From contig NZ_JPOJ01000001.1 in assembly GCF_000733855.1 (NCBI RefSeq), positions 4,054,128 to 4,078,127 on the forward strand: a stretch of DNA of 24,000 bases, written 5' to 3'. The notes beneath the pieces are model-generated. The model was not told where the DNA came from and ran no database searches. It saw nothing but the letters and a program-made list of their open reading frames with translations. Shown here in pieces: positions 5,246 through 24,000 of the stretch; the first letter of the stretch is position 1; each line of letters starts with the position of its first letter. The translations under genes and the position numbers were made by a program. The DNA comes from Methylomicrobium agile. Lineage in GTDB: Bacteria; Pseudomonadota; Gammaproteobacteria; Methylococcales; Methylomonadaceae.

Positions 5246-5426
5246 CAGTTTTCCTAAATACAAAATTGATCGAAAAAGGCTTTCCGCGATAGCATCATCA
5301 TCGCGGCCCGCTTGTGCGGAAAATCGAATTCCTTGCCAAACTTTCCCCCACCAAAAGTACGTGACGGCAGGGTAACCCTGATTCGGCATCCATACATACT
5401 CCGAATTCTGGATACCTCGCCTGCCG

Positions 5427-6530: not shown

Positions 6531-6532
6531 CC

Positions 6533-7342
6533 TCAGTCCCGTTTACCGGGCGGAGAGGGGACGAAACCGCACGGGACAGGCTTCAGCTGCAACTCCACCT
6601 GAAAGCTTTCGCCATCGATGTCGACGATGCACCCGGACCTCCCGGGCACGGTGCAGACGCGCAAGCGATCGATCAGATCGCGGGTGCGCAGGCGCTCGTC
6701 CGGATCGAGACGGAGAAGTTCCGACATCTCGTTGAGCTTGTGCCGCGTGCCGGGGTGACGTTGGGGGTGGCTGCGATAGGTACCGTCGACAATGCTCGGC
6801 CAAGTGGCTCGAAAGAGCTGAATCGCCGCGTCCTCGTGCTTGCGGTAGAGGGTATCGCCCGTGTCCTCGGGCGTCACTTCGACGAGGGCCTGAGCATACA
6901 GATCGCCCGCGTCGGCGGCCGAGTTCATGCGATGCACGCTGACTCCGGCCGGCGTTCCGTCGAGCACCGACCAGACGTAGTAAAAGAAGCCCTTGTTGTA
7001 CGGCAGGTAACCGGGATGAACGTTGATCGTGTCGATCTTAGGGAGGCTCAAGAAGCGCTCGTCGAGCACGTAGTCGAAGTAAAAACACGAGACGTAGTCG
7101 GGCTCGAGCGGCCGAATGATCTCGTCGAAGTGCTCGCGGGCGCGTTGGAATTCGAAGGCCGGTACGCCCGCGGCTTCGCACGCCGCAAGAATCTCGTCAC
7201 CAAAGAGCGCGGTCGCTCGCGGGTGCACCACGGCACCGCACACTTTGGTTTCCGGATCATTCAACAGGAACTTCAGACACTCGTAGCCGACACGGTTGTC
7301 CAGACACATCAATATGCTGCGGGACGGATTCAATTGTTTCAT
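6533..7342 (-). CDS. Formyltransferase family protein, probable N-hydroxy-amino-acid formyltransferase (role assigned by context)
   Basis: 269-aa ORF. Formyl_trans_N-type motif INVHPGYLPYNKG (catalytic His) followed by HRMNSAADAGD. First gene downstream of the Fur box at 7481. Sits in a hydroxamate-type siderophore context. Confidence 0.8.
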   Translation of the reverse strand: MKQLNPSRSILMCLDNRVGYECLKFLLNDPETKVCGAVVHPRATALFGDEILAACEAAGVPAFEFQRAREHFDEIIRPLEPDYVSCFYFDYVLDERFLSLPKIDTINVHPGYLPYNKGFFYYVWSVLDGTPAGVSVHRMNSAADAGDLYAQALVEVTPEDTGDTLYRKHEDAAIQLFRATWPSIVDGTYRSHPQRHPGTRHKLNEMSELLRLDPDERLRTRDLIDRLRVCTVPGRSGCIVDIDGESFQVELQLKPVPCGFVPSPPGKRD

Positions 7343-7480
7343 CGTTGGGTATCCCGGGTAGATACATAGCCCTCGAGCGCGACGCGGGTGATGTGGCTTC
7401 CGTTCGGAAGCGTCTGATTTAATACAATTAGGTTCATGCTACGGCAAACTCCAAAACAATCTAAAAATATTATAAATAGT

Positions 7481-7499
7481 AATAAGAATCATTCTTATT
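7481..7499. promoter_or_regulatory. Fur box (perfect 9-1-9 palindrome) for the minus-strand biosynthesis operon
   Basis: AATAAGAAT-C-ATTCTTATT in an AT-rich stretch about 140 nt upstream of the 7342 start. Matches 12/19 in direct alignment to GATAATGATAATCATTATC and has the same dyad architecture. A minus-strand TATAAT lies at comp 7474-7469. Two related sites occur at 14311 and 14639. Confidence 0.7.
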
Positions 7500-7617
7500 T
7501 TATATTTTATAGAAAACGATGCTCTTTGGCAAAAAATATTATCGGCCCGCTTTGGTTAAGCTCAAGGGCCCGGTTTCAAGCGAGCCGGTAAAAATCCTTA
7601 ATGCGCAAATCCCAAGC

Positions 7618-8616
7618 TCACCGTTGCACCGTCGGCTTCAGATATTTACCGATTATCCTGGCTATTTCCGCGCACGTCCCGTCGCTATCGCCATGATGCG
7701 CCATGTAAATTTCGGCGCCGTCAAACAAGGACATGAACAGCGGCGTGTCGTCGACTTCCTGCACCAGAACCAGCGGCTGGCTATCGGCTATGATCCGTTT
7801 CCATTCCTTGCGAACCATTTCCCAATAGGCGCCGGTCTTAGAGCATTTTCATGCCGCGTGTAGGAAGGCCCTCACCTTCTGAAGGGTACCCTGCCGTTAA
7901 GTCCAGCCAGTCCCGTAGGGTACGCGCTCGACTGCAGGGATGCAGGAGTTAGGGCAACGCATGGAGCAGTTGCCGAGTGCGTACCTTTCGACATTAGATG
8001 GTACGCACAGCGTACCCTACGGGTGCAGTCGTCTGGTAGTCCCCGATCGGGACAGGCTCTGCCGGAATGACGTGTTTTCCTTACGAAGGCCATATACCCC
8101 AAGTGAAAATGCTCTAGTCCAGTAATCATCACCGGCGCTAAAATCAAAACGCTTGATGCGTTCATAGCGGTTCAGCCCCTGTTCTTTTGCCAGATAACGG
8201 CGGGAGAAATTCTCCTGCCCGTCCCGGACAAGATGGACTTTGCGATTTTCTTCCTCTTGCACCCAGCCCGTCGGCAAGACGGTGTGGCTGTTATAGCCTT
8301 CCATTTGATATTGCCAATCCTGGCGCCAGTGTTTCAGCGCCATCGGTTGTGCCGGTTTGCCGTCGTCTTCCTTAAACATCATGACCATGATGTGCTGCAA
8401 GCTGATGAAATCGCCCCGGTCTTCCACCATGCGCTTACGGTTGGCAAGCGTCGGCAAGCCAAGATGGGGAGTCTGTTGGAGATCATAATGATCTGTTCCT
8501 CCCTCATCACGGAAGCGCCGGTCAAGTTGCGCCAGAATCCCGAGGAATGTAAGGCAGGGCGCCGGATCGTGCCATCGGCGACCCCTGCCTGCTTGACCTA
8601 ATCTCTTTCTCCGAAG
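7618..8616 (-). pseudogene. Hypothetical gene disrupted by a MITE insertion, possibly also lacking its 5' end
   Basis: Two same-frame ORFs (comp 8457-8017 and comp 7818-7618) flank the inserted repeat. Removing 7841-8116 joins ...FSAGDDYWT to KTGAYWEMVRKEWKR... with no frame change. The frame is open upstream to 8616, but the only start-like codon is TTG at 8457. No family recognised. Confidence 0.55.
7839..8116. mobile_element. Non-autonomous MITE-like element (about 274 bp plus TA duplication)
   Basis: 13-bp terminal inverted repeats TAGAGCATTTTCA (7839-7851) and TGAAAATGCTCTA (8104-8116); the outermost TA fits a TA target-site duplication. No transposase-sized ORF. Internal 14-bp inverted repeat CCCGTAGGGTACGC (7912-7925) / GCGTACCCTACGGG (8010-8023) and hairpin GGCAAC..GTTGCC (7953-7974). 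A degenerate second copy lies at 14491-14584. Confidence 0.75.
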
Positions 8617-8669
8617 CTAATGCCGGTCTTTCGCGCGTGCTCCGACATTATCCCGGTCCCAATCCCGGA

Positions 8670-9116
8670 TTATTTCGCTAAAGTTTCCTTGAATTTTTTC
8701 AACAATCCCTTGGCAGGCTTAGCGTCGGCCTCGGTCTCGGCAATGCTGAAATATTTGTCAAGCGTCGACGACAAATCGGCGGGATTGCCTACCAGCATGA
8801 CGGCGCCCATCCGCGCACCCCAGTGAGGCGGGCATTTGAAAACATACAAGCCTTCTTTCTTGACTTCATAGTTATAGTCCGCGCCCATTTGGGAATGCAT
8901 CGGTTCCGCGCCTTCCGGCCACAGGTTGGCCACCGGATCGACAAAATGCCCGGTCATTTCCTTAAAAGCGATGATGTCGCCCACCTGCGCTTTAATCACG
9001 CTGGGCGCAAAGCTGATCCCCTGCCCTTTGACCACGATCGTTTCGGCCCGGCAGGCAAACGCCGCCATCATCAATACGTTGGCGGCCAAGAATAATATTT
9101 TATTTTTCGACATCAT
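8670..9116 (-). CDS. Pseudoazurin-type blue copper protein (cupredoxin), secreted
   Basis: 148 aa with a signal peptide MMSKNKILFLAANVLMMAAFACRA. Type-1 copper ligands in pseudoazurin spacing: His in MTGHFV, then KCPPHWGARM (C-x2-H-x4-M), followed by VMLVGNPADL as in known pseudoazurins. GAGGAAGAGG SD. Confidence 0.88.
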   Translation of the reverse strand: MMSKNKILFLAANVLMMAAFACRAETIVVKGQGISFAPSVIKAQVGDIIAFKEMTGHFVDPVANLWPEGAEPMHSQMGADYNYEVKKEGLYVFKCPPHWGARMGAVMLVGNPADLSSTLDKYFSIAETEADAKPAKGLLKKFKETLAK

Positions 9117-9249
9117 TTTTCCTCTTCCTCAATATTTAAAATTACAGCATCCCTGAAATTAACCGGCCGGCACGGCGCGAACGCCTTGCCGGCCCCAATG
9201 CTTGGCGAACCGAAAGGCCGCCAAATATTAGCCGGCATCCTTGCCAGCT

Positions 9250-9270
9250 AAAACCGGGAAACCGGTTTTT
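9250..9270 (-). terminator. Weak bidirectional hairpin downstream of the N-hydroxylase gene
   Basis: AAAACCGG-GAAA-CCGGTTTTT. On the minus strand this reads AAAACCGG UUUC CCGGUUUU, about 70 nt after the stop at 9341. Only 4 GC pairs. A stronger GC hairpin (GGCCGGCA..TGCCGGCC, 9165-9194) follows, with no clean U tract. Confidence 0.3.
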
Positions 9271-9340
9271 CTAGTACGCGCTCGGCCCACACCGGGCGCG
9301 CCCTAAAGAACTGGCGCAGAAATTCGGCCCGGCCGATGCT

Positions 9341-10684
9341 TCAAACTCGCCCCACTCGCAATAAGGTAGCCGTATCCTGGTTTTCCGATCCGGTCTGAGT
9401 CTTGGCCGGGTAATCTTCACCCCATTGCAGCGGCGATGGGCAGGGGTCGACATCGTAAATCGCCTCCTCCATCAGGCTATTGATGATGATCGCCGAGCGC
9501 CAGGCGGCCAGGCTAAGCTGGGCATCGGCCACGCCGTGGCTGTTCCGGCCCGCGTTCTGCATATAGATGCGGTGCTCGGCGGGACCGTCCCAAGGCACGC
9601 GGTAATCCTCGGTCAAACGGGGAAGACCGTCAGCGTCCAGATCGAGCCGGCCGCGCAGCGGCATCAAGCATTCGGGAAGCTGGTAACGGTAACCGGTCGC
9701 CAGGATGATTTTGTCGACAACCACGCTTTCGTCGGTATGGTTGAAACCGTTGCGCATGTACAAATGGAACGCATTTTTACCGCCGCTCATCAGATGCACC
9801 TCGCGATTCGGCAGGATCGCGTAAGGCGTGGTGTCGCAGTCGAGAAAATCGCTGTCGTAAAGATACTGCGACAAGGCTTGCAAGGTGGCCGGCGAAACTC
9901 CGTCGCCGGTCAATTTATGGGAACTGACGATCGGCGGTTTTCTGGCTTCCGGCAAGCGGTGGAAATTGCGCACATAATGGGGCGTAAAGTATTCGTTGAT
10001 AAAGGCGGTTTCATCGAGCGGATCCAGATTCTGCCGTCTGCTGAGCCAGACGATTTTTTCGGCCCGGCCCCGGTTTCCGGCCATTAAATCCAGAAAGATT
10101 TCCGCTCCGCTCTGGCCTCCGCCGATGATCGCGACGCGCTTCCCGGCCACCGAAAACTCCGACCCGACATAATGGTGGCTATGCAGGCAGTTATCGCCGA
10201 CGTAACGCTCGACCCAGGCGGGAATATTCAGTTTCATCCCAGTGGCGACAACCAGGTGACGGCTATGCACATTAGCCACCCCCTCGCCCCGCAAATCGAA
10301 ACCGTGCGTATCGAATGCCACCGAATCGACCGCCGTGCCGAAACTGAGGCTCGGCAACTGTTCTGCGGCCCAACGCAGATAGTCGGCAAACTCGATCCGC
10401 CGCACTCGTGGATATTCGGCATTGATAAAACGGTAAAAGCGGCCTTTTTTTACCAAATAGGACAAAAAACCATAGGAGTTGCTCGGATCGATCGGAGTCA
10501 CCAGGTCCTTCAAATAGGAAGTCTGCATCTGCGTACCGGGCAGCATCATCCCAGGATGCCAATTGAAGCTGTTCCGACGCTCGAAGAAACGCGCCCGGCA
10601 GTGCGGCACCTTCGACAGCAACGCGGCCAGGCTGAGATTAAAAGGCCCGATGCCGATGCCGGCCAGGTCAAGACGATCGTTCAT
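9341..10684 (-). CDS. Flavin-dependent lysine/ornithine/diamine N-hydroxylase (IucD/PvdA/SidA family)
   Basis: 447 aa. FAD motif GIGIGPFNLSLAALL (closer to the IucD/AlcA style than to PvdA), NADPH motif VAIIGGGQSGAEIF, and ILATGY near the C-terminus. AGGA SD 7 nt upstream. Confidence 0.88.
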   Translation of the reverse strand: MNDRLDLAGIGIGPFNLSLAALLSKVPHCRARFFERRNSFNWHPGMMLPGTQMQTSYLKDLVTPIDPSNSYGFLSYLVKKGRFYRFINAEYPRVRRIEFADYLRWAAEQLPSLSFGTAVDSVAFDTHGFDLRGEGVANVHSRHLVVATGMKLNIPAWVERYVGDNCLHSHHYVGSEFSVAGKRVAIIGGGQSGAEIFLDLMAGNRGRAEKIVWLSRRQNLDPLDETAFINEYFTPHYVRNFHRLPEARKPPIVSSHKLTGDGVSPATLQALSQYLYDSDFLDCDTTPYAILPNREVHLMSGGKNAFHLYMRNGFNHTDESVVVDKIILATGYRYQLPECLMPLRGRLDLDADGLPRLTEDYRVPWDGPAEHRIYMQNAGRNSHGVADAQLSLAAWRSAIIINSLMEEAIYDVDPCPSPLQWGEDYPAKTQTGSENQDTATLLRVGRV

Positions 10685-10723
10685 GACTGTTTCCTGTGAT
10701 TAAATTAATAAAAGATGGCGCGC

Positions 10724-13144
10724 TCATTCGGGTAGCCAATGTTGATGCGCCACCGCGTCGCGTTCGATGGTGTCACGCCCGGTCGTCAACGGCAGATAAC
10801 CGCCTTCCGCCCACGCCGAAGTCATGTCGCGGTAGTGGGGCGACCAAGGCCGGCCGGATTGGCCGGTACCCAGGATAAAGACCGAGTTGTCCGGCTCGGC
10901 CAGATCGTAAATCGCTCGAAATGCCGGCCCGGACTCTCCCAGGTAACGGCCCGTTTGCTCGTCGTAACGGTAGCCGCTGACGTTGACGGTATCCATGCCG
11001 CCGGCGCTTTCGGCTTCGACATTGAAGAACCGCCCCAATCCGGGCAGCCTGCCGAGCGGCTGATTGGCAAACACGCTGACATGCGCCCTGCCCCAGCGCC
11101 ATTGCGCCGGCTCGTCGCCGTAATGCCGGCGCAGTTCGGCGACGGCGTCCTGTAAAGCCTGGCGGATTTCGCCAGCGCAAGGCGTCGGCGCCGCAGCACC
11201 GCTTCGGCACCAGCGCCCGGCGCTGCCGTCGCGGTTATTGAGCACGCGGGCGAGAAACGCCGGGTTGTAATCGCCGACCAGCTCGTAAAATTGGCCCAAT
11301 TTGTCTTGCAGCAGAATGCCGTTCAAATGGCGCAGCCAAGCGGCGAATATCAAAGGCTGCGCGGCATCCGCCGCCATCCGGTAGTCCCAATCGCGCATAC
11401 TGCGCAATACTTGCCGGCTCGATTCATCCTCAACATCCACGTTCAACAGTAACGGCATCAGTTCGGCGGCGACCGGGTTAAACACATCGTTCTGCAAGGC
11501 CGCAAATGAGCGGACATCGTGACGCGCCCGTCGATCGAGCAAGTCCGAAATGCGCTCGGCCCGATACGGCAACGCCCAGCCCGAGGTAATGAAATGAGGA
11601 TAATCCTCGGGGGTGATTTTTTGGTTGGCGGTGACGATTTTGCCGCCGCTGCCGCCGCTTTGTTGCGGCAGTTGCTCGAAGGGAATCATCCCCTGCCAGT
11701 CGTATTGAGCCAGCCAGCCCGGCGCAGGCAACGCGCCGCGGAGTTCATTGCCTTGGGCACGCAGAGGCACTCTGCCGGCGGCGATAAAACCGATGCGTCC
11801 TTCGGCATCCGCATAGACGATGTTCTGCTGCGGGGAGTGAAAATCGCGCGCCGCCGCTTTCAGTTGCTCCGCGTTTTGCGCGCGGCCGGCGTTCAGCATG
11901 AAACGGACGGTCATGTCGTCGGCGCGCAAGCCGACCCAGCTCAGCGCCAGCGCCGTGCCCGGCGGCGTCGCCAGCCGGGCGTCGGCGTCGGCTGTGGAAA
12001 TGAGCGGTCCGTGCCGGCTGGCCCGGACAGTCAAGCGTTCATCCGGCGCACCCTTGACGCGCAAGGTTTCGGTAAATTCGGTAAACGCCGCCTCGCCGGC
12101 CGGCGTCCGATAATGCGCAGGATTGCCGGGCACCAGGCGCTCGACGAATACATCCTGGCTATCGGGGTTGGTATTGGTAAACGCCCAGGCGACTTGTTCG
12201 TTACGGCCCAATAAAATGCCGGGCACGCCGGGTAAACCGGCACCGATCACGTTCAAACCCGGCGCATGCAAATGGGCAAAGTACCAGGTCGACGGCGCGG
12301 TCAACGGCAGATGCGGATCGTTGGCCAGCAGCGGTTTACCGCTGACGCTGCGGCTGCCGTCAACCGCCCAGTTATTGGAACCGACGCTTTTGTCGGCTTC
12401 GTCCCGATGCTGCGCCAGCAAGCGGTCTGCCTGCGCAGCGACCGGCGCATACCATTTCGAAACATCAGGCAAGGTTTGCGGCGCATCGCCGGGATACGGC
12501 GGAAACAGGTCGGCCAATTGCACAGCCGGCAACCGACTTTGCAGGCGCAGATTGAGCAGTTCCTCCCACCAGTTGCCGGACAGGCGCCAGGCCATGATTT
12601 TCAACCAGGTCAGAGAATCCACCGGCCGCCAGGGCTCCGGCCGCGGCGCGCCGGCCAGGTAAAATTCGACCGGCAACCAGCGGCTCTGCGCGATGCCGGC
12701 GTTGACGCCTTTGGCGTAGGCCTGCAAGCTGGCTTGAGTGGCGGGATCGAGCCGCGCCCAGTTGGCCTCGGCGGCGCGGCGCAATCCCAAGGTGCGCATG
12801 AAACGGTCCTGCTCCAGGGCATCGGCGCCGAACAGTTCCGCCAGCCGGCCGGATCCGGCGCGACGGCTCAACTCCATTTGCCATAATCTTTCCCGAGCAT
12901 GCAGATAACCTAAAGCGAAATAGGCATCGTCGGCGCTTTGCGCATACACGTGCGGCACATCAAAGCGGTCCCGGTAAACCTCGACGGGTTGAATCAGCCC
13001 GGCCAACTCAAGCGTTTCATCGCGCGCACCGCTCGACTTCAGCCATAGACCCGATAGAATGGCGAGCATGCCGGCCAGCCACCAGAAGATCGGCCGATTT
13101 TTAATCGAACTGACGGGCTTGCCGAGCGATTCAACTGATTTCAT
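10724..13144 (-). CDS. pvdQ: Penicillin-acylase-family Ntn hydrolase, PvdQ-like siderophore/acyl-HSL acylase
   Basis: 806 aa with an N-terminal signal/anchor (IFWWLAGMLAILSGLWL). Autoprocessing nucleophile motif GSNNWAVDG followed by PLLANDPHL. Size and order match PvdQ/QuiP-type acylases. The symbol is by context only (FAAL-initiated NRPS plus PvdE-type exporter). Confidence 0.8.
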   Translation of the reverse strand: MKSVESLGKPVSSIKNRPIFWWLAGMLAILSGLWLKSSGARDETLELAGLIQPVEVYRDRFDVPHVYAQSADDAYFALGYLHARERLWQMELSRRAGSGRLAELFGADALEQDRFMRTLGLRRAAEANWARLDPATQASLQAYAKGVNAGIAQSRWLPVEFYLAGAPRPEPWRPVDSLTWLKIMAWRLSGNWWEELLNLRLQSRLPAVQLADLFPPYPGDAPQTLPDVSKWYAPVAAQADRLLAQHRDEADKSVGSNNWAVDGSRSVSGKPLLANDPHLPLTAPSTWYFAHLHAPGLNVIGAGLPGVPGILLGRNEQVAWAFTNTNPDSQDVFVERLVPGNPAHYRTPAGEAAFTEFTETLRVKGAPDERLTVRASRHGPLISTADADARLATPPGTALALSWVGLRADDMTVRFMLNAGRAQNAEQLKAAARDFHSPQQNIVYADAEGRIGFIAAGRVPLRAQGNELRGALPAPGWLAQYDWQGMIPFEQLPQQSGGSGGKIVTANQKITPEDYPHFITSGWALPYRAERISDLLDRRARHDVRSFAALQNDVFNPVAAELMPLLLNVDVEDESSRQVLRSMRDWDYRMAADAAQPLIFAAWLRHLNGILLQDKLGQFYELVGDYNPAFLARVLNNRDGSAGRWCRSGAAAPTPCAGEIRQALQDAVAELRRHYGDEPAQWRWGRAHVSVFANQPLGRLPGLGRFFNVEAESAGGMDTVNVSGYRYDEQTGRYLGESGPAFRAIYDLAEPDNSVFILGTGQSGRPWSPHYRDMTSAWAEGGYLPLTTGRDTIERDAVAHQHWLPE

Positions 13145-14584: not shown

Positions 14585-14638
14585 ACAACAAGAGCATCTA
14601 TCCACAGAAAAATAATAAATTTGTTGCAAATAGATATT

Positions 14639-14657
14639 GAGAATGATTATCATTTGT
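14639..14657. promoter_or_regulatory. Fur box upstream of the plus-strand export operon
   Basis: GAGAATGATTATCATTTGT matches GATAATGATAATCATTATC at 14/19. It lies 25 nt upstream of the ATG at 14682, in an AT-rich region with TTGCAA (14624-14629) and TATAAA (14657-14662) promoter-like hexamers nearby. Confidence 0.65.
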
Positions 14658-14681: not shown

Positions 14682-14924
14682 ATGAAATTCTTTCCCTCTT
14701 TGTTTAGCACGCCGGCAACCGTAAGACTGGAAATCGAACCGAACTTTCTAGCCTCTTTGTTAGCGAGTGGACATATCCACGTCGCCGACTTCCGCTGCCT
14801 GGATCTGAATTCGAAGCAGATCGTCTGGAAGATGTTGCTGTCGCTTGCCAAATCGAAGCTGGCCACGGCGAGGCATGGCTCGAAAGCCGTCAGTACGCTA
14901 TCCGAATCGACTTATCCATCCTAA
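14682..14924 (+). CDS. Small hypothetical protein (80 aa), Fur-box proximal
   Basis: GGAG SD 6 nt upstream of the ATG. Codon usage looks like the neighbouring genes. No family recognised (MKFFPSLFSTPATVRLEIEPNFLASLLASGHIHVADFRCLDL...). Confidence 0.45.
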   Translation: MKFFPSLFSTPATVRLEIEPNFLASLLASGHIHVADFRCLDLNSKQIVWKMLLSLAKSKLATARHGSKAVSTLSESTYPS

Positions 14925-14943
14925 CTGTCCGGAGAATTTGACC

Positions 14944-15159
14944 ATGTCTAACAAGCCCTGCAGCCATGAAGACCTCGCCAGCAACGCCGCCGGAAAAATA
15001 TTGATGTGCCATGAGTGCGGTGTCGTCCACCTGCTCTTGCCCAATCTGTCGTTGCGCCTGAACCTCGAACAATTCGCCGAATTCTCGGCATTGGCCGCAG
15101 AAGCGGCCAGAAAAATAGGCAAGCCAACGATCCTTCCGGCCGCCAACACCCGACATTGA
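14944..15159 (+). CDS. Small hypothetical protein (71 aa) with C-x-H ... C-x-x-C cluster
   Basis: Internal ATG of the 14845-15159 track ORF, with a GGAGAA SD 7 nt upstream, 19 nt after the previous stop. MSNKPCSHEDLASNAAGKILMCHECGVVHLL... has three Cys and several His that could form a small metal site. No family recognised. Confidence 0.5.
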   Translation: MSNKPCSHEDLASNAAGKILMCHECGVVHLLLPNLSLRLNLEQFAEFSALAAEAARKIGKPTILPAANTRH

Positions 15160-16843: not shown

Positions 16844-16926
16844 TTTGATGGCTTTAAAAAAAAGCCGGACCGGCTCGTTCAGCAAGGACGGCCGAAGCCA
16901 TGACTTTCCAGGGTGCAGGATCGACG

Positions 16927-18261
16927 ATGAATCGAAAACAAAAGATTTCAAGTTGGAACAATAAGATATTGATCGCTATCATGTGGATCGCTTATCTTCC
17001 TGCCGGCACTGAAGGAACGGTACTGGCTTCCCCTACCGAGCCCGGCGAAAGCGAACCCAAAGCAAAGGAAACTTCGGAACAACCGGAATCTTTTGAAAGT
17101 GAAAGCGCCTTGACAGGTGATTGGGGCGGTGTGCGATCGACTTTACTCGAAAACGGGATCAACATCGGCATTGCCAATACCGGCGACTTATTGGCCAACT
17201 CTCGAGGCGTAAGCGCCGATGTCCGCTATGCGAACCTGCTGGAGGCATCGCTTACGGCGGACATGGACAAGTTAGCGGGTTTGACCGGCGGTTCCCTGTA
17301 TATCATGGCGATCGGCACCCACGGAAGAGACCCGGGCGAGGCGACCGGCAGCATCGCCGCTCCGAGCAACCTGGCGGCCAACGATACCTTCAAACTCTTC
17401 GAAGCCTGGTACGAACAAACGTTCTTTAACGACCGGATCGGCATTCTGGCGGGACTCTACGCCGTCGATTCCGAGTTCGATGCGAAGGGAACCGCCGATG
17501 TTTTTCTCAACGGGGCGTTCGGCACGGGCCTGGACCTGTCCGAAACCGGGCTGAATGGTCCGTCGATCTTTCCGGTAACTTCGCTCGGCGTCAGAGTCCG
17601 CGCCAATATTACCGAGGAAATCACCCTGCGGGCGACGGTTCTGGACGGCGCTCCGGGCGATCCCGACCATCCCCGCGGCACACGGATCGGATTAAAGAAA
17701 GGAGACGGTCTGCTGATCATGAGCGAACTCGATTATCAGCCTCATGCATTCGACTTCCTGCGCTTCGGCGTGGGCTCGTGGTTGTATACTGCCGATTTCG
17801 ACGACCTGGCCGATACCCGGCCGAACGGCGATCCTGTGCGCCGAGAGGGCTCTTACGGGATCTATGGCTTTGTCGAAGGCGTGATCTTTAATGAACCGGA
17901 TACGGTCGATCAGGGACTCAGCGGTTTCTTACGCATCGGCAGCGCCGACGAAGACGTTAACCAGATCGGAACTTTCTATGGCGCAGGCTTAGTCTATACC
18001 GGCCTGTTCCCAAGCCGGGACGATGACGTGCTCGGACTGGGCGTAACGGTGGGAATCAACGGCGACAAGTACGAGCGTGCGCTGAAAAGCGCCGGCGGCT
18101 CCGTCAAGGATGCCGAAATAGCCCTGGAACTGACCTATCGGGCGCAGATAACGCCATGGCTCAGCCTTCAGCCGGTTCTCCAGTATTACATTAATCCGGG
18201 TACCGATCCCGCATTAAACGACAACATCGTAGGCGGGTTTCGGTATGGCGTCACTTTCTGA
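16927..18261 (+). CDS. OprB-family (carbohydrate-selective type) outer-membrane porin
   Basis: Family-typical start of the barrel LTGDWGGVRSTLLENGINIG and a C-terminal aromatic end GGFRYGVTF. Signal-like ILIAIMWIAYLPAG. The track start is 16900; ATG at 16927 has a GCAGGA SD 6 nt upstream. Confidence 0.8.
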   Translation: MNRKQKISSWNNKILIAIMWIAYLPAGTEGTVLASPTEPGESEPKAKETSEQPESFESESALTGDWGGVRSTLLENGINIGIANTGDLLANSRGVSADVRYANLLEASLTADMDKLAGLTGGSLYIMAIGTHGRDPGEATGSIAAPSNLAANDTFKLFEAWYEQTFFNDRIGILAGLYAVDSEFDAKGTADVFLNGAFGTGLDLSETGLNGPSIFPVTSLGVRVRANITEEITLRATVLDGAPGDPDHPRGTRIGLKKGDGLLIMSELDYQPHAFDFLRFGVGSWLYTADFDDLADTRPNGDPVRREGSYGIYGFVEGVIFNEPDTVDQGLSGFLRIGSADEDVNQIGTFYGAGLVYTGLFPSRDDDVLGLGVTVGINGDKYERALKSAGGSVKDAEIALELTYRAQITPWLSLQPVLQYYINPGTDPALNDNIVGGFRYGVTF

Positions 18262-18271
18262 GGAAGTCTGG

Positions 18272-18853
18272 GTGCCCTGTATGATAAACATAACTTCGAC
18301 AAGATTCCGGCCGTATTGGGCCTTGACAGCGTTAATGCTGATCGCCGGCTGCACGAGGACGATGATGGAGGAGGAATCGGCACATTCTTCTTCCGGCACA
18401 GCGGAGAATCATCCGAACCTTTGGAGATGCCCGCCAACGCGTGAAACGCCCCAGGCGCCCCAGTCCTATTACCTGAAACCAAACCCTTTGGCACGGACGC
18501 CCGGCAATATCGAAAAAGGAAAGCGGCTGTATGAAAGTGACGCCGCGCCTGTCTCGTGCGCGAACTGCCACGGGCTGTACGGCGACGGCCAGGGGCCGAT
18601 CGGCAAACATTTGCAGCCGCCGCCGACGGACTTCACCTGCAAAGCCCTCATGGAGTCTTTGCCCGACGGCCAGTTATTCTGGATCGTTGAAAATGGCTCG
18701 GGGCTTTATGAATTGACCCCCGGCCACAGCCGGGAAACGCTCAAACGGCCCGGGCGACGGCCGCGCTACACCGCCATGCGCGGCCACAAGAATGAGTTGA
18801 CCGAGGAGCAAATCTGGCAGTTGGTATTGTATATCAGGACATTCTCGAAATAA
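18272..18853 (+). CDS. Monohaem c-type cytochrome, predicted lipoprotein
   Basis: Single haem site CANCHG, distal Met region RYTAMRGH, class I C-terminal helix EEQIWQLVLYIRTF. Lipobox LMLIAGC. Start uncertain: the track gives 18245 (overlapping the porin); GTG at 18272 is 5 nt after AGGAAG; ATG at 18281 is also possible. Confidence 0.8.
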   Translation: MPCMINITSTRFRPYWALTALMLIAGCTRTMMEEESAHSSSGTAENHPNLWRCPPTRETPQAPQSYYLKPNPLARTPGNIEKGKRLYESDAAPVSCANCHGLYGDGQGPIGKHLQPPPTDFTCKALMESLPDGQLFWIVENGSGLYELTPGHSRETLKRPGRRPRYTAMRGHKNELTEEQIWQLVLYIRTFSK

Positions 18854-19044
18854 TCGCCGCCCGAATGAAGGATTGGATTTTCCAGAAACGGTTCTGTCAA
18901 ATGTGCGTACCCGCGAAGGTTCGGGCAGCGAGCGGCCGCGCCGACTTTTTCGACCGTCGGTTCGATAGCGAACGCATGCGCAAGATTATTCTTGCGGCGA
19001 GACAGTAATGAAGGATACAGGCAAATCTTTAGCAAAACCTTGGG

Positions 19045-19073
19045 TTGCCAATGCCTATCGGCGGGCATATACT
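19045..19073 (+). promoter_or_regulatory. Candidate sigma-70 promoter for the six-gene operon
   Basis: TTGCCA (19045-19050), 17-nt spacer, TATACT (19068-19073). This would give a leader of roughly 190 nt before the ATG at 19273. Sequence-only prediction. An alternative is TTCGAT (18961-18966), 17 nt, GATTAT (18984-18989). Confidence 0.35.
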
Positions 19074-19272
19074 CAAGCCGTCACCCCCGAACAAGGTTAC
19101 CCATGCCGCAAGACAACAGATGTTGGCGATTTAAATCGTACGGGCACCGATGCCTCACTTTCGAAAACACAAGCAGGATGCCGTAGTTTAAGCCGCCTGC
19201 CGGAGTTCGTAAAACACTTATACCGCTGGCAAGCCGCCGCCAGCCAACCGATTTTTTCCAGGAAGCGAATTT

Positions 19273-19614
19273 ATGCCTACCTTTGAACAACTGCGCGGCT
19301 ATCTCGACCGGGTCAATATCGCCCACCATATCCGGGGCCGTATCCGACTGCGCCTTCAGGCTTATCCCAAGGAACTGCCGCTACCCGATCCGGACGATAC
19401 CGGACAATTCCAAGCCCTGATCGAACAAACGCCCGGCGTGCGCTCGGTACGCATCAATCCGTTGGCGCGTTCCTGCCTGATCGAATACGACCCCCGGGTA
19501 ATCCCCGACCAAGCCTGGAAAGATTTCATTGCCGGCGATTCATCGGCCGCTGCGCTGATCCTGGAACACATCCTGCGCGACACTTATCAGGAGATCATTC
19601 ATGCCCAATTATGA
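19273..19614 (+). CDS. Small HMA-like (ferredoxin-fold) protein without CxxC; first gene of the fez-like operon
   Basis: 113 aa with an AGGAAG SD 7 nt upstream. RGRIRLRL...TPGVRSVRINPLARSCLIEYDP parallels the N-terminal domain of the ATPase (RGRVRFRY...IKGVLTVKVNPAICALVIEYEA). No CxxC site. The stop overlaps the next start by 14 nt. Confidence 0.7.
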   Translation: MPTFEQLRGYLDRVNIAHHIRGRIRLRLQAYPKELPLPDPDDTGQFQALIEQTPGVRSVRINPLARSCLIEYDPRVIPDQAWKDFIAGDSSAAALILEHILRDTYQEIIHAQL

Positions 19615-20296
19615 CGAAGCGATCCTGCGTTCCCGCAGGCTAAACCCCAACGCACCGTTTCCGCTGCTGCATCAGGCGGTACGTATCGCGCTGTACGACG
19701 AGTATGCGGCGCGCGCATTCTATGGCCGGGTGGTCGAAGCCTTCGGCCCGCGGCCGCCGTTCGCCAACATCGTGCGCGCCGAACAACGCCATGTTGAGGC
19801 GCTCTCCCGGCAATGCGAACGTTTAGGCATTCCCCGCCCGTTGGATCCGTTTCCGCAGGAAACCGAAATCGAACCGACCTGGCGGGCCAACTGCGAGCGC
19901 GCCGTGGTCGGTGAAATCGCCAATATTCGACTTTATCACGATTTGTTGCCGCATGTCGGCGATCCGCACGTCATCAGCGTCATGCAAAGCTTGCAGGCCG
20001 CTTCGCTGAACGACCATCTGCCGGCTTTTCAAGAAGCCGTCGCCGATGCCCTGGCACAGGAACACTACCATGCCGCTCAAGGCATTCCGCCGCAACAGGC
20101 CTACGAACATCACGGCCCGTTGGCCGATCTCCTGGAAAAACTCCTCGTCCAGCTTAGTCCGCACGCGGGCTCCTTCGGCTTGTTCAGCCCGCTGCTTCGC
20201 CGTACGACCCCCGCCATGCTGGCCGGTATCACCCTGGGCGGCGCCGGCGTTTATTTGTACCGCAACCGCTTAAGTCGTAGAAACCAGGAGAATTGA
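19601..20296 (+). CDS. Membrane-anchored ferritin-like protein (DUF2202-type four-helix bundle plus C-terminal TM helix)
   Basis: 231 aa with an AGGAG SD. Motifs ALYDEYAARAFY, FANIVRAEQRHVEAL (ExxH), VVGEIANIRLYHDLL, ASLNDHLPAFQ match my recollection of the DUF2202 ferritin-like family. C-terminal hydrophobic helix PAMLAGITLGGAGVYLY is followed by the basic tail RNRLSRRNQEN. Confidence 0.75.
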   Translation: MPNYDEAILRSRRLNPNAPFPLLHQAVRIALYDEYAARAFYGRVVEAFGPRPPFANIVRAEQRHVEALSRQCERLGIPRPLDPFPQETEIEPTWRANCERAVVGEIANIRLYHDLLPHVGDPHVISVMQSLQAASLNDHLPAFQEAVADALAQEHYHAAQGIPPQQAYEHHGPLADLLEKLLVQLSPHAGSFGLFSPLLRRTTPAMLAGITLGGAGVYLYRNRLSRRNQEN

Positions 20297-20297
20297 T

Positions 20298-20582
20298 ATG
20301 TTCCATTTAATCCGTTTTGCAGCCGGCGTAGTCACAGGGATTGTCGCCATTAAACTGATTCAAAGTAAATCGACTCAGGACACGCTCAAAAAAGCCGGCA
20401 AATCCACCCAGGCAACTTTGGAAAAAGCTCAGGACAAACTGCGCGACGCAACCGTCAACAGTCTTGAAGCCATCGAAAGCGCATCGGTCAAAGCCCGCGC
20501 CAAATTAACCAGCGAAGAAAAAGCGGCGACGAAAAAGATTTCCTCGCGCAAACACGAAAAAATCGAACCCGACCAGGAGTAA
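20298..20582 (+). CDS. Small single-pass membrane protein (N-terminal TM helix, charged helical tail; YtxH-like layout)
   Basis: 94 aa with an AGGAG SD; the start is 1 nt after the previous stop. LIRFAAGVVTGIVAIKLI has small-xxx-small spacing and is followed by a Lys/Glu/Ala/Thr-rich tail. Confidence 0.65.
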   Translation: MFHLIRFAAGVVTGIVAIKLIQSKSTQDTLKKAGKSTQATLEKAQDKLRDATVNSLEAIESASVKARAKLTSEEKAATKKISSRKHEKIEPDQE

Positions 20583-20587
20583 ACTTC

Positions 20588-20914
20588 ATGAAACACCTCT
20601 ACTATCCCTACGCCCCCGGCACAGTCGGAGCACGCGGCGACGGCAGTTTTACCAGGGGCTTTGTCGCCTCGGCCTGCATTTCCGCATTCCAGGATGTTGC
20701 CCATCCGGATTTTAAAGCCGATTACTTGCGGGTACTGCGCCACGGCCTGCAAGGCGGCACGGCGCTGGCGGCCGGTTCGCATGCGGCCCGATCACTGCAC
20801 CAGGGCGATTACACCAGTGCCCTGCTGTCCGTCGCCGTCGGCGCGGCCGGCGTGTTGTTGCTGGAGAACCTGCTGACCGATAAAGTGGAAACCAAGGAGG
20901 CCGGCGATGAGTAA
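20588..20914 (+). CDS. Small protein with C-terminal TM helix, unknown function
   Basis: 108 aa with an AGGAG SD and a 5-nt gap to the previous gene. C-terminal hydrophobic helix ALLSVAVGAAGVLLLENLL and an acidic end. The stop overlaps the next start by 8 nt. Confidence 0.6.
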   Translation: MKHLYYPYAPGTVGARGDGSFTRGFVASACISAFQDVAHPDFKADYLRVLRHGLQGGTALAAGSHAARSLHQGDYTSALLSVAVGAAGVLLLENLLTDKVETKEAGDE

Positions 20915-21476
20915 AAAACACCACAAAACACGAAACCGCGAAGGCTTCGATTACGGCTACGGCCAGCCTTGGCCAAGCGAAGGATTCGGCCCGGCCCAAG
21001 CGCCCTGGGGCGCCTACCCCCCGGGCTATGGCCAAGCGCACTCTGTTTACGGGCCGCAGCCCGGTTACGCGCCCGACATGGGCATGCCGCCGGAAGCACA
21101 CGGCCACGGTTACAACCACCACGATGACGCAGCCGCTTACGGTCCCGGTTACGGATCGACTTATGGGTATGGCGGCGGCTTTCGGCATTCCGGGAACGGC
21201 TACGGTTCCGACAATTATGCCCCGGGCGGTTTCAATCGCGATTTTTTGCGTGAGACGTCATCCCTGTTTTCGTCACAGCACACCGACCAGTTTCTGTTGG
21301 GCCTGCTATTAGGTGCCGGTGCGGCCTGGGTGTTGAGTGACGAGGAAATCCGCGGCAAACTGATCAAATCGGTGATGAAGGCCTATGCCGGCGTAGCCGG
21401 CGGTTTCGAAGAACTGAAGGAGCAAATGGCCGACATTCGCGCCGAAGTCGCCGCCGAACGCCACGGGGACGAGTAA
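20907..21476 (+). CDS. Gly/Tyr/Pro/His-rich low-complexity protein with TM helix and amphipathic C-terminus
   Basis: 189 aa with an AGGAGG SD. Residues 13-110 contain 25 Gly and 13 Tyr (GYG/YGP repeats, plus His/Asp/Pro). They are followed by FLLGLLLGAGAAWVL and a YtxH-like helical tail. TAATG overlap with the ATPase start. Confidence 0.65.
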   Translation: MSKKHHKTRNREGFDYGYGQPWPSEGFGPAQAPWGAYPPGYGQAHSVYGPQPGYAPDMGMPPEAHGHGYNHHDDAAAYGPGYGSTYGYGGGFRHSGNGYGSDNYAPGGFNRDFLRETSSLFSSQHTDQFLLGLLLGAGAAWVLSDEEIRGKLIKSVMKAYAGVAGGFEELKEQMADIRAEVAAERHGDE

Positions 21477-23626
21477 TGACCGCGACCTGGTTCGCCAAGC
21501 TTGAGACCGTGCATCGCAACCGCGGCCGGGTGCGTTTTCGCTATCGCTGCCGCAAAACCACGTCATTCGAACCGCGCCAAATCAGCCGCGCGGTCGAAGC
21601 GATCAAGGGCGTACTAACGGTCAAGGTCAATCCGGCCATTTGTGCGCTGGTCATCGAATACGAAGCCGGCATGACTGACGCCGATACGCTGGCCGCCGCC
21701 CTTCTCGCCTTGCCGCCGCCGGCCCATCCTTTGCCAAACGGTAAGGTGCTGGCCAGCGATGCGGCCCGCCTGGGCGCGGTGGCGATGAGCGGCGCGACCT
21801 TACTGGCCAGCCGCAATCTCCAGCCGGCTTTGCAAATGCCGGTCGCCTTCGGCACGGCGGTGCCGCTGCTCGGCGAAGCCATCGACGATTTTCTGGAAAA
21901 AGGCATTACCTCGCATGTGCTCGAAGCCCTGGCCGTCGCCATTTCAATCGGCCGCCACGATTATCTGGCCGCCAACACCACGTCGTTTTTATTGGCCTTG
22001 GGCGAATACCTGGAGCACTCCATCGCCCGGCGTTCGGACGATTTATTGAAACACCTGCTGGAACCCGGCAGCAGGGAAGTCTGGGTCGAACGCGACGGTG
22101 TCGAAACCCTGGTTGCAGCACAAGACGTCATCGTCGGCGACACCGTGATCGCCGCCACGGGCACGGTGATTCCGGTCGACGGCACGGTGCTGGGCGGCGA
22201 AGCACTGGTCAACGAAGCCACCATGACTGGCGAAAGCGTCCCGGTGGTACGGCGGCGGGGCAATAAAGCGCTGTCCGGCACCTTGGTCGAGGAAGGCCGC
22301 ATCCGGATTTATGCCGAACAGGTCGGCCGCCAGGCCGCCGCTTCGCGTATCGCCGACTTGGTCGAACAATCCTTGACCGTCAAAAGCGAAACCCAATTGG
22401 AAGCCTCGCGCCTGGCCGACAAAACCGTACCGCTGGTCCTGGCGCTGGCGGCAGCAACCTGGCTGATTTCACGCGACAGTGAACGGGTCGCCGCGGTCTT
22501 GCAGGCCGATTATTCCTGCGCATTGAAACTGGCTACCCCCGTGGCGTTCAAATCGGCGATGTACCGGGCCGGCCAAAGCAATATCCTGGTCAAAGGCGCC
22601 AATGCCCTGGAACGTTTGGCCAAAGCCGACACTTTCGTGTTCGACAAGACCGGCACCCTGACCAGCGGAACCTTGCAGGTCACCGATTCGATCACCTTCA
22701 ACCGGGACTACACGCCGGAAGATCTGATCAATCTGGCCGCTTCGGTCGAGGAGCATTATTTCCATCCGCTGGCGCAGGCCGTCGTCGAAGCGGCGCACAG
22801 CCTGGACCGCCACCAGCATTTCCACCATCAGGAGGTGGAGTTCGTCGTCGCCCACGGCGTCGCCAGCGTGATCGACGGCCAACGCATCGTGGTCGGCTCA
22901 CGGCATTTCATCGAAGACGACGAAGGCATTGCCATCGATGAATATCGCGAAGTGCTCGATAAAATCCATGCCGAGGGAAAAACCCTGCTGTATATCGGTT
23001 TCGGCGGCAAATTACTCGGCGTCCTGGTCCTGACCGACACCATCCGCCCCAACAGCGCCGCCATGATAGCGCGTTTGCGCACCTTGGGCGTCAAGCGCAT
23101 TCTGATGCTGACCGGCGACCATCACGACCGCGCGCGCCTGCTGGCGGAAGAATTGGGCCTGGACGAATTCCGCGCCGGTCTACTGCCGCACGAAAAAGCA
23201 CAGATTCTGGAAGAGCTGGCCGGACAAGGCGCCCGCCTCGCCTTTATCGGCGACGGCGTCAACGATGCGCCGGCCCTGAGCGGCTCCCTCGTCGGCATTG
23301 CGATGCATCGTGGCGCCGACATCGCCCGCCTAGCCGCCGACATTACCTTGCTGGAAGACGACATCGCCCGCGTCGCCGATGCCCGCGCCTTGGCCCTGGC
23401 GACAGCCAGGCTGATCGACAGCAATTTCAAGCTGACGGCGGGCCTCAATACCGGCATTTTATCGGCGGCCGCCATCGGCTGGCTGAATCCGATCAAGGCC
23501 TCGATGCTGCACAACGGCAGCACCATCGCCATCTTGCTGCGCGCGCTGCTGGGCGGCGGCATGCCGTCCAAAACCCAAACCCGCGCCGGCCGCCCACCGC
23601 CCAAACTCAAACGTTCAACCAGATAA
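21476..23626 (+). CDS. fezB: P1B-type ATPase with SCA transmembrane metal site (P1B-6 subgroup, FezB-like)
   Basis: 716 aa. P-type cores TGES (aa 251-254), DKTGT (22643-22657), MLTGDH, GDGVNDAP. TM4 reads DYSCALK (SCA at 22514-22522) instead of CPC/SPC/CPH. A late TM segment has LHNGST. The N-terminal HMA-like domain lacks CxxC. The ATPase call is firm; the fezB symbol is tentative and rests on the SCA motif plus operon content. Confidence 0.85.
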   Translation: MTATWFAKLETVHRNRGRVRFRYRCRKTTSFEPRQISRAVEAIKGVLTVKVNPAICALVIEYEAGMTDADTLAAALLALPPPAHPLPNGKVLASDAARLGAVAMSGATLLASRNLQPALQMPVAFGTAVPLLGEAIDDFLEKGITSHVLEALAVAISIGRHDYLAANTTSFLLALGEYLEHSIARRSDDLLKHLLEPGSREVWVERDGVETLVAAQDVIVGDTVIAATGTVIPVDGTVLGGEALVNEATMTGESVPVVRRRGNKALSGTLVEEGRIRIYAEQVGRQAAASRIADLVEQSLTVKSETQLEASRLADKTVPLVLALAAATWLISRDSERVAAVLQADYSCALKLATPVAFKSAMYRAGQSNILVKGANALERLAKADTFVFDKTGTLTSGTLQVTDSITFNRDYTPEDLINLAASVEEHYFHPLAQAVVEAAHSLDRHQHFHHQEVEFVVAHGVASVIDGQRIVVGSRHFIEDDEGIAIDEYREVLDKIHAEGKTLLYIGFGGKLLGVLVLTDTIRPNSAAMIARLRTLGVKRILMLTGDHHDRARLLAEELGLDEFRAGLLPHEKAQILEELAGQGARLAFIGDGVNDAPALSGSLVGIAMHRGADIARLAADITLLEDDIARVADARALALATARLIDSNFKLTAGLNTGILSAAAIGWLNPIKASMLHNGSTIAILLRALLGGGMPSKTQTRAGRPPPKLKRSTR

Positions 23627-23642
23627 CTCCTCAGGAAACCCC

Positions 23643-23870
23643 ATGACATTGAAAGATCTCTCCATTGGCGACCGCGCCAAAGTGCTCGGCTTCAACGAAA
23701 CCGGCAAGGCCTACCGGCGCAAACTCCTGTCCATGGGCCTGACGCCCGGTACCGAGATCAGCCTGATCCGGGTCGCGCCAATGGGCGATCCGGTCGAAAT
23801 TCTGATCCGCGGTTATTCGCTTTCGCTACGCAAAGGCGAAGCCGATGCATTGACCATCGACAAACTCTGA
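23643..23870 (+). CDS. feoA: Ferrous iron transport protein A
   Basis: 75 aa with the FeoA SH3-like pattern [12 protein letters not shown]...[30 protein letters not shown]; the start is 16 nt after the ATPase stop; ATGA overlap with feoB. Confidence 0.9.
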
Positions 23871-24000
23871 TGAAGACGCGTTACACCATCGCTCTCGTCG
23901 GCAACCCCAATTGCGGTAAAACCACCGTGTTCAACGCCCTGACCGGGGCACGGCAACGGGTCGGCAATTGGCCCGGCGTGACCGTCGAAAAAAAAAGCGG
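23870..24000 (+). CDS. feoB: Ferrous iron transporter FeoB, N-terminal G domain (partial, continues past the window end)
   Basis: Hand translation [44 protein letters not shown] shows the G1 P-loop GNPNCGKT and the FeoB-typical [10 protein letters not shown]. Not in the ORF track because it is open at the window edge. Confidence 0.9.

Follow-up and report, generated by a model that had tools for sequence, protein, structure and literature searches.

A stretch of 24,000 nucleotides (nt) from Methylomicrobium agile (contig NZ_JPOJ01000001.1, positions 4,054,128 to 4,078,127; here called the window) carries six tightly packed open reading frames (ORFs) at 19273-23626, all on the + strand. These are read here, with a probability of about 0.78, as a fez (ferrosome) cluster of the proteobacterial type known from Shewanella putrefaciens and Rhodopseudomonas palustris. 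Ferrosomes are a recently recognised lipid-bounded organelle for iron storage, and experiments on them have so far been made in anaerobes or in anaerobically grown cells. A first-pass annotation of the window had already arrived at a fez-type locus, and the motifs of the ATPase FezB, the accessory protein families, the gene order and the co-conservation of the genes across species all agree with it. The novelty of the locus does not hold up, as the cluster of the same strain is already catalogued as fez, and little is added here as discovery. The supplement of Grant and Komeili (2020; bioRxiv 10.1101/2020.01.10.902569) tabulates it for M. agile ATCC 35068 as CC94DRAFT_3663-3669, with the host flag 'Aerobe', and the published lengths and motif strings all agree with the ORFs of the window.

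The first gene of the array, ORF1 (19273-19614; 113 amino acids (aa); CC94DRAFT_3663), encodes a soluble, R-rich, HMA_2-like protein resembling FezD, which is placed in published group 3-1 with the motif NIAHHIRGRIRLRLQ. It is followed by genes for a ferritin-like, DUF2202-related protein (ORF2, 19601-20296; 231 aa; CC94DRAFT_3664, group 5), a FezE-like GxxxG membrane protein (ORF3, 20298-20582; 94 aa; CC94DRAFT_3665, group 2-5, motif RFAAGVVTGIVAIK) and a small FezF-like membrane protein (ORF4, 20588-20914; 108 aa; CC94DRAFT_3666, group 4-2). ORF5 (20907-21476; 189 aa; CC94DRAFT_3667, group 2-1, motif QFLLGLLLGAGAAW) joins a G/Y/P/H-rich part to a GxxxG helix and is FezG/FezA-like. The last gene (21476-23626; 716 aa; CC94DRAFT_3668) encodes a P1B-6-type ATPase with an N-terminal, R-rich HMA_2 domain, tabulated as FezB (group 1-1) with DYSCALK, HNGST and HRNRGRVRFRYR. 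The published FeoA neighbour, CC94DRAFT_3669, corresponds to feoA (23643-23870, + strand; 75 aa; Pfam FeoA, 1.1e-22), which starts 16 nt past the fezB stop codon. The 5' end of feoB (23870-24000, + strand) shares 1 nt with the stop codon of feoA and continues beyond the window.

The coordinates bear out the first description of the six-ORF array, of its junctions and of the 16-nt spacing to feoA. From ORF1 to FezB, the genes are joined by a 14-nt overlap, a 1-nt gap, a 5-nt gap, an 8-nt overlap and a 1-nt TAATG overlap. No terminator-like site was found on the + strand in the gap 5' of ORF1 or between the ATPase gene and feoA. A strong Shine-Dalgarno sequence had been ascribed to every ORF; this is correct for five of them, which like feoA have AGGAG, AGGAA or AAGGAGG 6-9 nt upstream, and incorrect for the ATPase gene, which has GGGGA only. 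The DNA of the window is 99.5% identical to the Methylomicrobium album BG8 chromosome over 12.5 kb, and the BG8 locus (L081), which contains a complete FeoB (775 aa), was used as a proxy for the sequence past the window end.

The ATPase shows no mismatch to M. agile WP_031431794.1 and three mismatches to the M. album BG8 protein. It is matched by the Pfam families E1-E2_ATPase, Hydrolase and HMA_2 and scores 463 bits against TIGR01525. A motif scan located both the P-type core motifs (TGE at 251, DKTGT at 390, TGD at 546 and GDGVNDAP at 592) and the SCA motif in the fourth transmembrane helix (TM4), from which the P1B-6 assignment had been proposed. According to the published definition, FezB/P1B-6 proteins carry D[Y/F]SCA in TM4 and HNxxT in TM6, together with an R-rich N-terminus in most members (Grant and Komeili, 2020). 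The M. agile protein has DYSCA at 345-349, HNGST at 679-683 and, at 13-26, the R-rich string HRNRGRVRFRYRCR, which is the same string as in the published CC94_3668. Judged by its sequence, the ATPase is a FezB/P1B-6 protein under this definition, as first assigned. Across 46 homologues, D345 and C348 never vary and Y346, S347 and A349 hardly do, and H679, N680 and T683 of TM6 are likewise invariant. In the published FezB table, the M. agile entry and the validated FezB proteins carry a common clade colour code.

Alignment to solved pumps places Y346-S347-C348 of FezB against C-P-C of CopA and S-P-C of the P1B-4 pump sCoaT. The SCA motif thus lies one residue out of register with CPC, and the otherwise conserved proline of TM4 is a serine in FezB. 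The best match of the ATPase in the PDB is CopA of A. fulgidus (257 bits), and neither a P1B-6 protein nor any close relative has a solved structure. In the AlphaFold2 (AF2) model of FezB, which has a mean predicted local distance difference test (pLDDT) score of 73, residues 6-77 form a beta-beta-alpha-beta-beta-alpha HMA_2 domain. A homologue search seeded with the Magnetospirillum fulvum FezB returned no protein named as R. palustris among the matches listed; two 698-aa candidates from it belong to Rhodoblastus sphagnicola and a relative.

A copper, zinc, cadmium or cobalt resistance operon, misread as fez through a variant TM4 motif, is highly improbable. The ATPase does pass the NCBIfam cadmium-family model TIGR01512, at 344 bits against a cut-off of 313.5, yet its scores against the CopA/ZntA equivalog models all fall far short of the cut-offs (291, 258 and 227 bits against 1316, 1005 and 1240, respectively). 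There is no CPC or SPC in TM4, no CxxC, [CS]PC or [CS]P[CHS] was found anywhere in the ATPase sequence, and a His-rich N-terminal domain is lacking as well. The protein does not group with copper, zinc or cobalt pumps, an outcome that the first-pass annotation had named as damaging to its reading. Further, the ATPase reaches identities of 58-89% with proteins of 80 species, as opposed to only about 257 bits with CopA, and the named neighbours of the cluster are all related to iron (feoAB, Fur boxes, a siderophore pathway, a TonB-dependent receptor, PepSY and EncFtn).

Those 80 species were drawn from a scan in which each GTDB species was represented by one genome; loci were retrieved by the pattern DYSC or TPVAFK, and 498 loci held a relative. 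Synteny was counted by tblastn with the window proteins in the best 80 of the 498 loci. Within these, fezB co-occurs with ORF5 in 78 loci, with ORF1 in 69 (after matches within fezB itself were dropped), with ORF4 in 56, with ORF3 in 54 and with ORF2 in 44. The homologues are collinear, lie on the same strand and stand directly 5' of fezB, and ORF5 is immediately upstream of the ATPase gene in 78/80 loci. Among the hosts are Methylobacter, Methylomonas, Azotobacter/Azomonas, Thauera/Aromatoleum, Ectothiorhodospira, Rubrivivax, Magnetospirillum and Aeromonas. Conservation of the accessory genes together with the ATPase had been proposed as a test of the fez assignment, and it is seen in 44-78 of the 80 loci depending on the gene. 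The six-ORF array is no chance pattern, because other genomes hold homologues of all six ORFs in this order. A FeoA match downstream of fezB on the + strand occurs in 19/80 species loci, and among the Methylococcales, L081 and L084-L089 have feoA 3' of fezB. In one of these, from a metagenomic relative with 80% FezB identity (L089, 4328-6642), fezB-feoAB is preceded only by a 57-aa ORF and by glycosyltransferase and asparagine synthase genes that are unrelated to fez, and the five upstream accessory genes have apparently been lost.

The accessory families and their order also match those of characterised fez operons. Both sputcn32_3193-3198 of S. putrefaciens and RPA2333-2338 of R. palustris are composed, in order, of groups 1-1, 2-1, 4-2, 2-5, 3-1 and 3-2 (Grant and Komeili, 2020). 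In three species ferrosomes depend on the fez operon, and E. coli forms them when given the Shewanella operon alone. Of C. difficile, FezA and FezB by themselves are enough for ferrosomes in E. coli. This bears on a different explanation, in which the cluster would export Fe(II) or another divalent metal across the envelope to the periplasm, with the small proteins as accessory subunits of the pump and no organelle in this aerobe. Such an efflux system is unlikely. It would agree with the characterised P1B ATPases, all of which export metal out of the cytoplasm, with the TM6 motif HNGST, which is nearest to HEGST of the Co/Fe-type P1B-4 pump sCoaT, and with peroxidase genes that lie near the cluster in two relatives. 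The host flag 'Aerobe' and the lack of ferrosomes in aerobically grown S. putrefaciens also count in its favour. However, the accessory families are those of the operons that are necessary, and in one case sufficient, for ferrosomes. Moreover, an exporter placed directly 5' of the importer genes feoAB, apparently within one transcription unit, would set up a futile cycle. Nor did the window ORFs that were scanned include a metal-sensing MerR/ArsR regulator, the lack of which had been remarked on at first reading.

With a fez cluster as the preferred reading, the accessory proteins can be considered in turn. ORF1 had been described as a cysteine-less HMA-like protein. Its HMA-like nature stands (Pfam HMA_2, 7e-07), and its motif NIAHHIRGRIRLRLQ is identical to that of CC94DRAFT_3663, but the protein is not cysteine-less; a single Cys, C68, is kept in 69/70 sequences within N-x-L-A-R-S-C-x-V-E-Y-D. 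ORF1 also carries the R-rich motif HHIRGRIRLRL and is paralogous to the N-terminal domain of FezB (E 2e-7), which is without the C68-equivalent Cys. The residues H18, G22, R23, R25, N62, A65, S67, Y72, D73 and W82 are invariant in 70 sequences. This conserved set of His, Cys and Asp could form a metal or redox site that has so far gone unrecognised.

The FezC family (group 3-2) has no member within the window, and a genome without FezC was considered and rejected, since a FezC-like gene sits past the window end in the BG8 locus. There it occupies L081 15292-15735 on the - strand, some 3.1 kb beyond the stop codon of fezB and convergent to the fez-feoAB string, from which a 222-aa ORF without a Pfam match separates it. 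Its product has an HMA_2 match (2.1e-10), the R-rich motif IVSSLPGRIRVRDNR and two hydrophobic, His-bearing transmembrane helices; FezC is a heme-b cytochrome (PMC10979944). The same layout is found in four other Methylococcales loci (L084-L087). A FezC-like gene is downstream of fez on the opposite strand in Methylobacter, Azotobacter and Thauera too, and stands immediately 5' of the ORF1 homologue in Aromatoleum. Because the gene is found downstream in BG8 and its relatives, the system in M. agile probably comprises seven fez genes.

ORF2 is exactly M. agile WP_031431791.1. Its score against Pfam DUF2202 (PF09968) is 16.7 bits, under the cut-off of 22, and covers residues 33-80 only, while some of its close homologues have a precomputed PF09968 match. 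For this reason, its sequence identifies ORF2 as a divergent DUF2202 relative. The ferritin-like nature claimed for it at first reading is supported by an AF2 model with pLDDT > 90 at about 11-150 and lower values beyond, in which helices at 22-48, 54-75, 94-118 and 122-159 make up a four-helix bundle. Foldseek places MJ0754, Rv2844, the Dps-like PA4880, bacterioferritins and ferritins at the top of its PDB matches, with probabilities of 0.99-1.00. A C-terminal helix containing GxxxG is predicted, at low confidence, at 204-227. Of the six canonical di-iron ligands, ORF2 has five (E34, E61-x-x-H64, E105 and H139), so that the full E/ExxH/E/ExxH set is incomplete; the second ExxH is without its Glu (L136, N137). 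Of 45 sequences, 25 have His and 17 have Arg at position 64, and only 22 retain E61. No signal peptide was found in ORF2. A role of ORF2 as ferroxidase or nucleator inside the vesicle, as the first-pass annotation had it, is doubtful, given the missing signal peptide, the five-ligand site and the variability of two ligands among orthologues.

ORF3 and ORF5 are both small hydrophobic GxxxG proteins encoded beside fezB. ORF3 has a predicted transmembrane helix at 3-21 containing GVVTG, followed by a charged helical tail, and shows weak matches to DUF6110, YtxH and ZapG-like proteins. Its motif RFAAGVVTGIVAIK is identical to that of CC94DRAFT_3665, and it shares its group with RPA2336 and Sputcn32_3196. 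Conservation in ORF5 is confined to the C-terminal 70 or so residues, where a hydrophobic GxxxG helix (GLLLG within the conserved GLLLGAGAAW) precedes an amphipathic C-terminal helix. Its motif QFLLGLLLGAGAAW is identical to that of CC94DRAFT_3667, and its group is shared with RPA2334 and Sputcn32_3194. The extreme Gly/Tyr richness first ascribed to this protein applies to part of it: overall, ORF5 has 17.5% Gly and 7.4% Tyr, and the G/Y/P/H-rich part (about 11-120) is not conserved in length among orthologues of 103-200 aa. ORF4 matched no Pfam family. It has one strong predicted transmembrane helix (78-96) and the conserved Gly/Ala-rich segments F21-x-R-G-F-V and LQGG-x-A-x-AAG, and it falls, as the published CC94DRAFT_3666, in group 4-2 together with RPA2335 and Sputcn32_3195. 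The earlier view of three single-pass proteins is less clear for ORF4, as its family, FezF, is described in the literature as having two transmembrane helices.

By analogy with Desulfovibrio magneticus, S. putrefaciens, R. palustris and Clostridioides difficile, Fe(II) would enter the cell by FeoAB, and FezB would use ATP to pump iron out of the cytoplasm and into a small vesicle of inner-membrane origin. The GxxxG proteins would shape or stabilise the vesicle membrane, iron would be stored in the lumen as an amorphous iron-phosphate mineral, and the FezC-like b-type cytochrome might adjust the redox state of iron across the membrane. ORF1 might dock on FezB or deliver iron to it, since its fold is paralogous to the FezB N-terminus and carries the invariant His18 and the near-invariant Cys68. 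ORF2, having no signal peptide, would most likely face the cytoplasm and act as an iron-binding accessory rather than a luminal nucleator.

Several observations weigh against a ferrosome cluster in this organism. The hosts of FezB are for the most part strict or facultative anaerobes, and S. putrefaciens forms no ferrosomes when aerobic (Grant and Komeili, 2020). The ferrosome mineral of C. difficile is a ferrous phosphate that oxidises in air, and so oxygen-sensitive a mineral is a poor fit to an obligate aerobe. A literature search found no report of ferrosomes in any methanotroph. The AF2 model of FezB has eight helical segments in its membrane part (88-114, 117-142, 146-159, 163-195, 305-332, 335-367, 631-666 and 672-692), against six reported for P1B-6, and the placement of the protein in the FezB clade is taken from motifs and the published table rather than from a phylogeny. 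Lastly, the 419 nt 5' of ORF1 (18854-19272) contain no Fur box, the best site matching 11/19 positions, which is background level, and no FNR/ANR box at up to 2 mismatches.

The 5' region holds little else of a regulatory kind. A weak candidate sigma-70 promoter, TTGCCA-17-TATACT, lies within the 419-nt gap at 19045-19073 (+ strand); it is the sole promoter-like site in 18700-24000, where shuffled sequence yields 1.6. A block 5' of ORF1, ATATACTC, is conserved in the three closest relatives only and not in L087, L088 or L001, and the leader blocks are no evidence of function, as they are limited to those three relatives. Rfam detected no structured RNA or riboswitch at gathering thresholds anywhere in the window. 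A 92-aa ORF at 19008-19286 (+ strand), which shares 14 nt with the start of ORF1 and has a gene call in the BG8 locus, was considered as a seventh gene and rejected. It is probably not a gene, because its identity in Methylicorpusculum is only 38%, with neighbouring genes far better conserved (87% for FezB), and because L085, which has no gene call there, lacks most of the stretch that holds the 5' part of the ORF, just past the start codon.

The best Fur-box-like sites of the window lie further upstream. Two overlapping sites at 14633-14657, with 16/19 and 15/19 positions of the consensus, stand in an AT-rich gap (G+C content 0.44) at the head of a same-strand string of two small ORFs, an ATP-binding cassette (ABC) gene, an OprB porin gene, a cytochrome c gene, fez and feoAB. 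The two small ORFs (14682-15159, on the same strand as fez) encode 80 and 71 aa, and the second has a weak DUF6686 match. In L084, L085 and L087, the equivalent string is likewise headed by Fur boxes of 15-16/19, and in L087 the small ORFs with the Fur box immediately precede fez. Iron control of fez by read-through from these distal Fur boxes is plausible, and expression of the cluster is probably iron-responsive through the boxes at the head of the string.

Boxes of the FNR type (TTGAT-N4-ATCAA, at up to 1 mismatch) were found within 400 nt 5' of ORF1 in 11/69 loci, where about 0.8 would be expected by our own estimate. These loci (L009, L018, L019, L023-L027, L056, L064 and L080) have the box 120-300 nt 5' of the first fez gene, and their hosts are mostly facultative anaerobes and phototrophs. 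The boxes fit a 2026 preprint, in which fez of R. palustris is derepressed in a mutant of aadR (FNR family) and its upstream region is shared with a promoter that has an FNR site. No FNR-type box was found upstream of ORF1 in the Methylobacter or Azotobacter loci. The M. agile cluster seems to do without the FNR-type anaerobic switch of facultative anaerobes.

These data also bear on the possibility that the locus is a real fez cluster but active only under hypoxia or anoxia, as at an oxic-anoxic interface, and silent in standard aerobic culture. This restriction is a real possibility, though rather less than an even chance is given to it. Ferrosomes have so far been observed anaerobically, with the oxygen-sensitive mineral noted above, and the feoAB linkage suits low-oxygen settings in which Fe(II) is available. 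One paper reports that aerobic methanotrophs survive hypoxia in lake sediments. On the other hand, an FNR-type box is missing upstream in the window as in Azotobacter and Methylobacter, whereas 11 of the 69 related loci have one, and the accessible part of the C. difficile work describes ferrosome foci formed by FezA and FezB in E. coli grown in AB medium, with no oxygen regime given there. A further proposal, put forward tentatively, is that the fez cluster of the Methylococcales, and similarly that of Azotobacter, has been rewired for oxygen, with the FNR switch lost, FezC moved out of the operon, a membrane-tethered ferritin-like protein gained and a Fur-headed string in place. If so, obligate aerobes would build an oxygen-tolerant ferrosome, possibly with a ferric rather than a ferrous mineral, fed by a dedicated Fe(II) route from the outer membrane to the organelle, and ferrosomes would extend beyond anaerobic physiology.

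Upstream of the fez cluster, an OprB-family porin gene (16900-18261, + strand; Pfam OprB, 2.6e-61) overlaps by 17 nt a gene for a c-type cytochrome (18245-18853, + strand; Pfam Cytochrom_C, 2.2e-09). The pair stands 5' of fez in M. album, Methylicorpusculum and two metagenomic relatives as well (L081 and L084-L086), and a betaproteobacterial metagenome-assembled genome (L009) has homologues of both genes 3' of fezB and before feoA. The porin and the cytochrome may form the outer-membrane and periplasmic part of a fez iron route.

A probable siderophore pathway, already noted by the first-pass annotation, lies beside the cluster. A fragment of a non-ribosomal peptide synthetase with adenylation, thiolation and condensation domains (2-3322, - strand) extends past the window start, and 3190-13144 contains TauD-like, thioesterase, deacetylase-like, formyltransferase, ornithine/lysine N-monooxygenase and PvdQ-like acylase genes. 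Together they look like a hydroxamate or pyoverdine-type siderophore pathway. The first kb of the window, which encodes the condensation domain, has a G+C content of 70% against about 58% elsewhere in the window. The same region holds an ORF of the plastocyanin/azurin family (8017-8457, - strand; 148 aa) and a DUF6607-like ORF (8670-9116, - strand; 146 aa). In the BG8 locus, an EncFtn-like gene of 95 aa (L081 16015-16302, + strand), also seen in L086, lies beside PepSY_TM and TonB-dependent receptor genes; no encapsulin shell gene was found among its called neighbours.

A complete fez set thus stands intact in obligately aerobic methanotrophs, linked to genes for Fe(II) uptake and siderophore synthesis. 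Such methanotrophs have a high demand for iron and copper and are genetically tractable. M. album BG8 and M. agile therefore offer a practical system for studying ferrosomes under oxygen and the roles of the DUF2202, FezD-like and FezF-like proteins. The question raised by the locus is whether an obligate aerobe builds ferrosomes, and under what control.

Among known systems, the operon of S. putrefaciens CN-32 (sputcn32_3193-3198, encoding FezB, FezG, FezF, FezE, FezD and FezC) has the same families in the same order, 3-1, 2-5, 4-2, 2-1 and FezB (1-1). The TM4 heptad DYSCALK is identical in the two, and iron-uptake genes surround both loci. The group 2-1 motif is QFLLGALLGATAAY in S. putrefaciens and QFLLGLLLGAGAAW in M. 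agile, and the TM6 motif is HNGTT in the former and HNGST in the latter. Further differences are that the FezC-like gene (3-2) is part of the Shewanella operon, whereas that of M. agile would lie on the other strand, some 3.1 kb further downstream, and that M. agile has a DUF2202 ferritin-like gene inserted after the first gene. The counterpart of ORF5 has 112 aa in S. putrefaciens, as compared with 189 aa and a long G/Y-rich N-terminal extension in M. agile, which moreover is an obligate aerobe. The R. palustris CGA009 cluster (RPA2333-2338) likewise has six genes of the same families, with 3-1, 2-5, 4-2, 2-1 and FezB collinear, and the motifs are close: NIAHHIRGRIRLRLQ of ORF1 compares with EIAHHLPGRIRLKLK of RPA2337, and the ORF5 motif with QFLLGLLIGGLAAY of RPA2334. 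Unlike M. agile, R. palustris has its FezC-like RPA2338 inside the operon, lacks a DUF2202 gene and reportedly has fez linked to the FNR-type regulator AadR, for which no FNR-like counterpart box exists upstream in M. agile.

The smaller clusters of D. magneticus (fezABC) and C. difficile (fezAB) share with M. agile a FezB P1B-6 ATPase and at least one GxxxG protein (FezA, group 2-4), and D. magneticus has an R-rich protein (FezC) as well. In contrast, they consist of 2-3 genes only, and their hosts are strict anaerobes. Their FezA belongs to GxxxG subgroup 2-4, while ORF3 and ORF5 belong to 2-5 and 2-1, respectively, and D. magneticus FezB has DFSCAIK and HNLAT. The P1B-4 pumps (sCoaT, PDB 7qbz, and the PfeT-type Fe/Co exporters) resemble FezB in the P1B core and in HEGST, which aligns with HNGST, and both classes are linked to Fe(II)/Co(II). 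They differ in the S-P-C of TM4, where FezB has Y-S-C, in their other N-terminal domains and in having no conserved fez-type accessory genes; the similarity amounts to 227 bits only.

The closest architecture outside the Methylococcales is that of Aromatoleum, Thauera and Azotobacter, in which homologues of ORF1, the DUF2202 gene, ORF3, ORF4, ORF5 and fezB follow one another with a FezB identity of 64-73%. These clusters comprise seven families, DUF2202 included, and in many of them feoA comes after fezB. The OprB-cytochrome c pair of M. agile recurs, among the 80 species loci, in L009 only. Azotobacter chroococcum and A. beijerinckii differ from M. agile in having a 16/19 Fur box about 356 nt 5' of ORF1. 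Aromatoleum keeps its FezC-like gene directly 5' of ORF1, whereas Azotobacter and Thauera, like BG8, have it downstream on the opposite strand.

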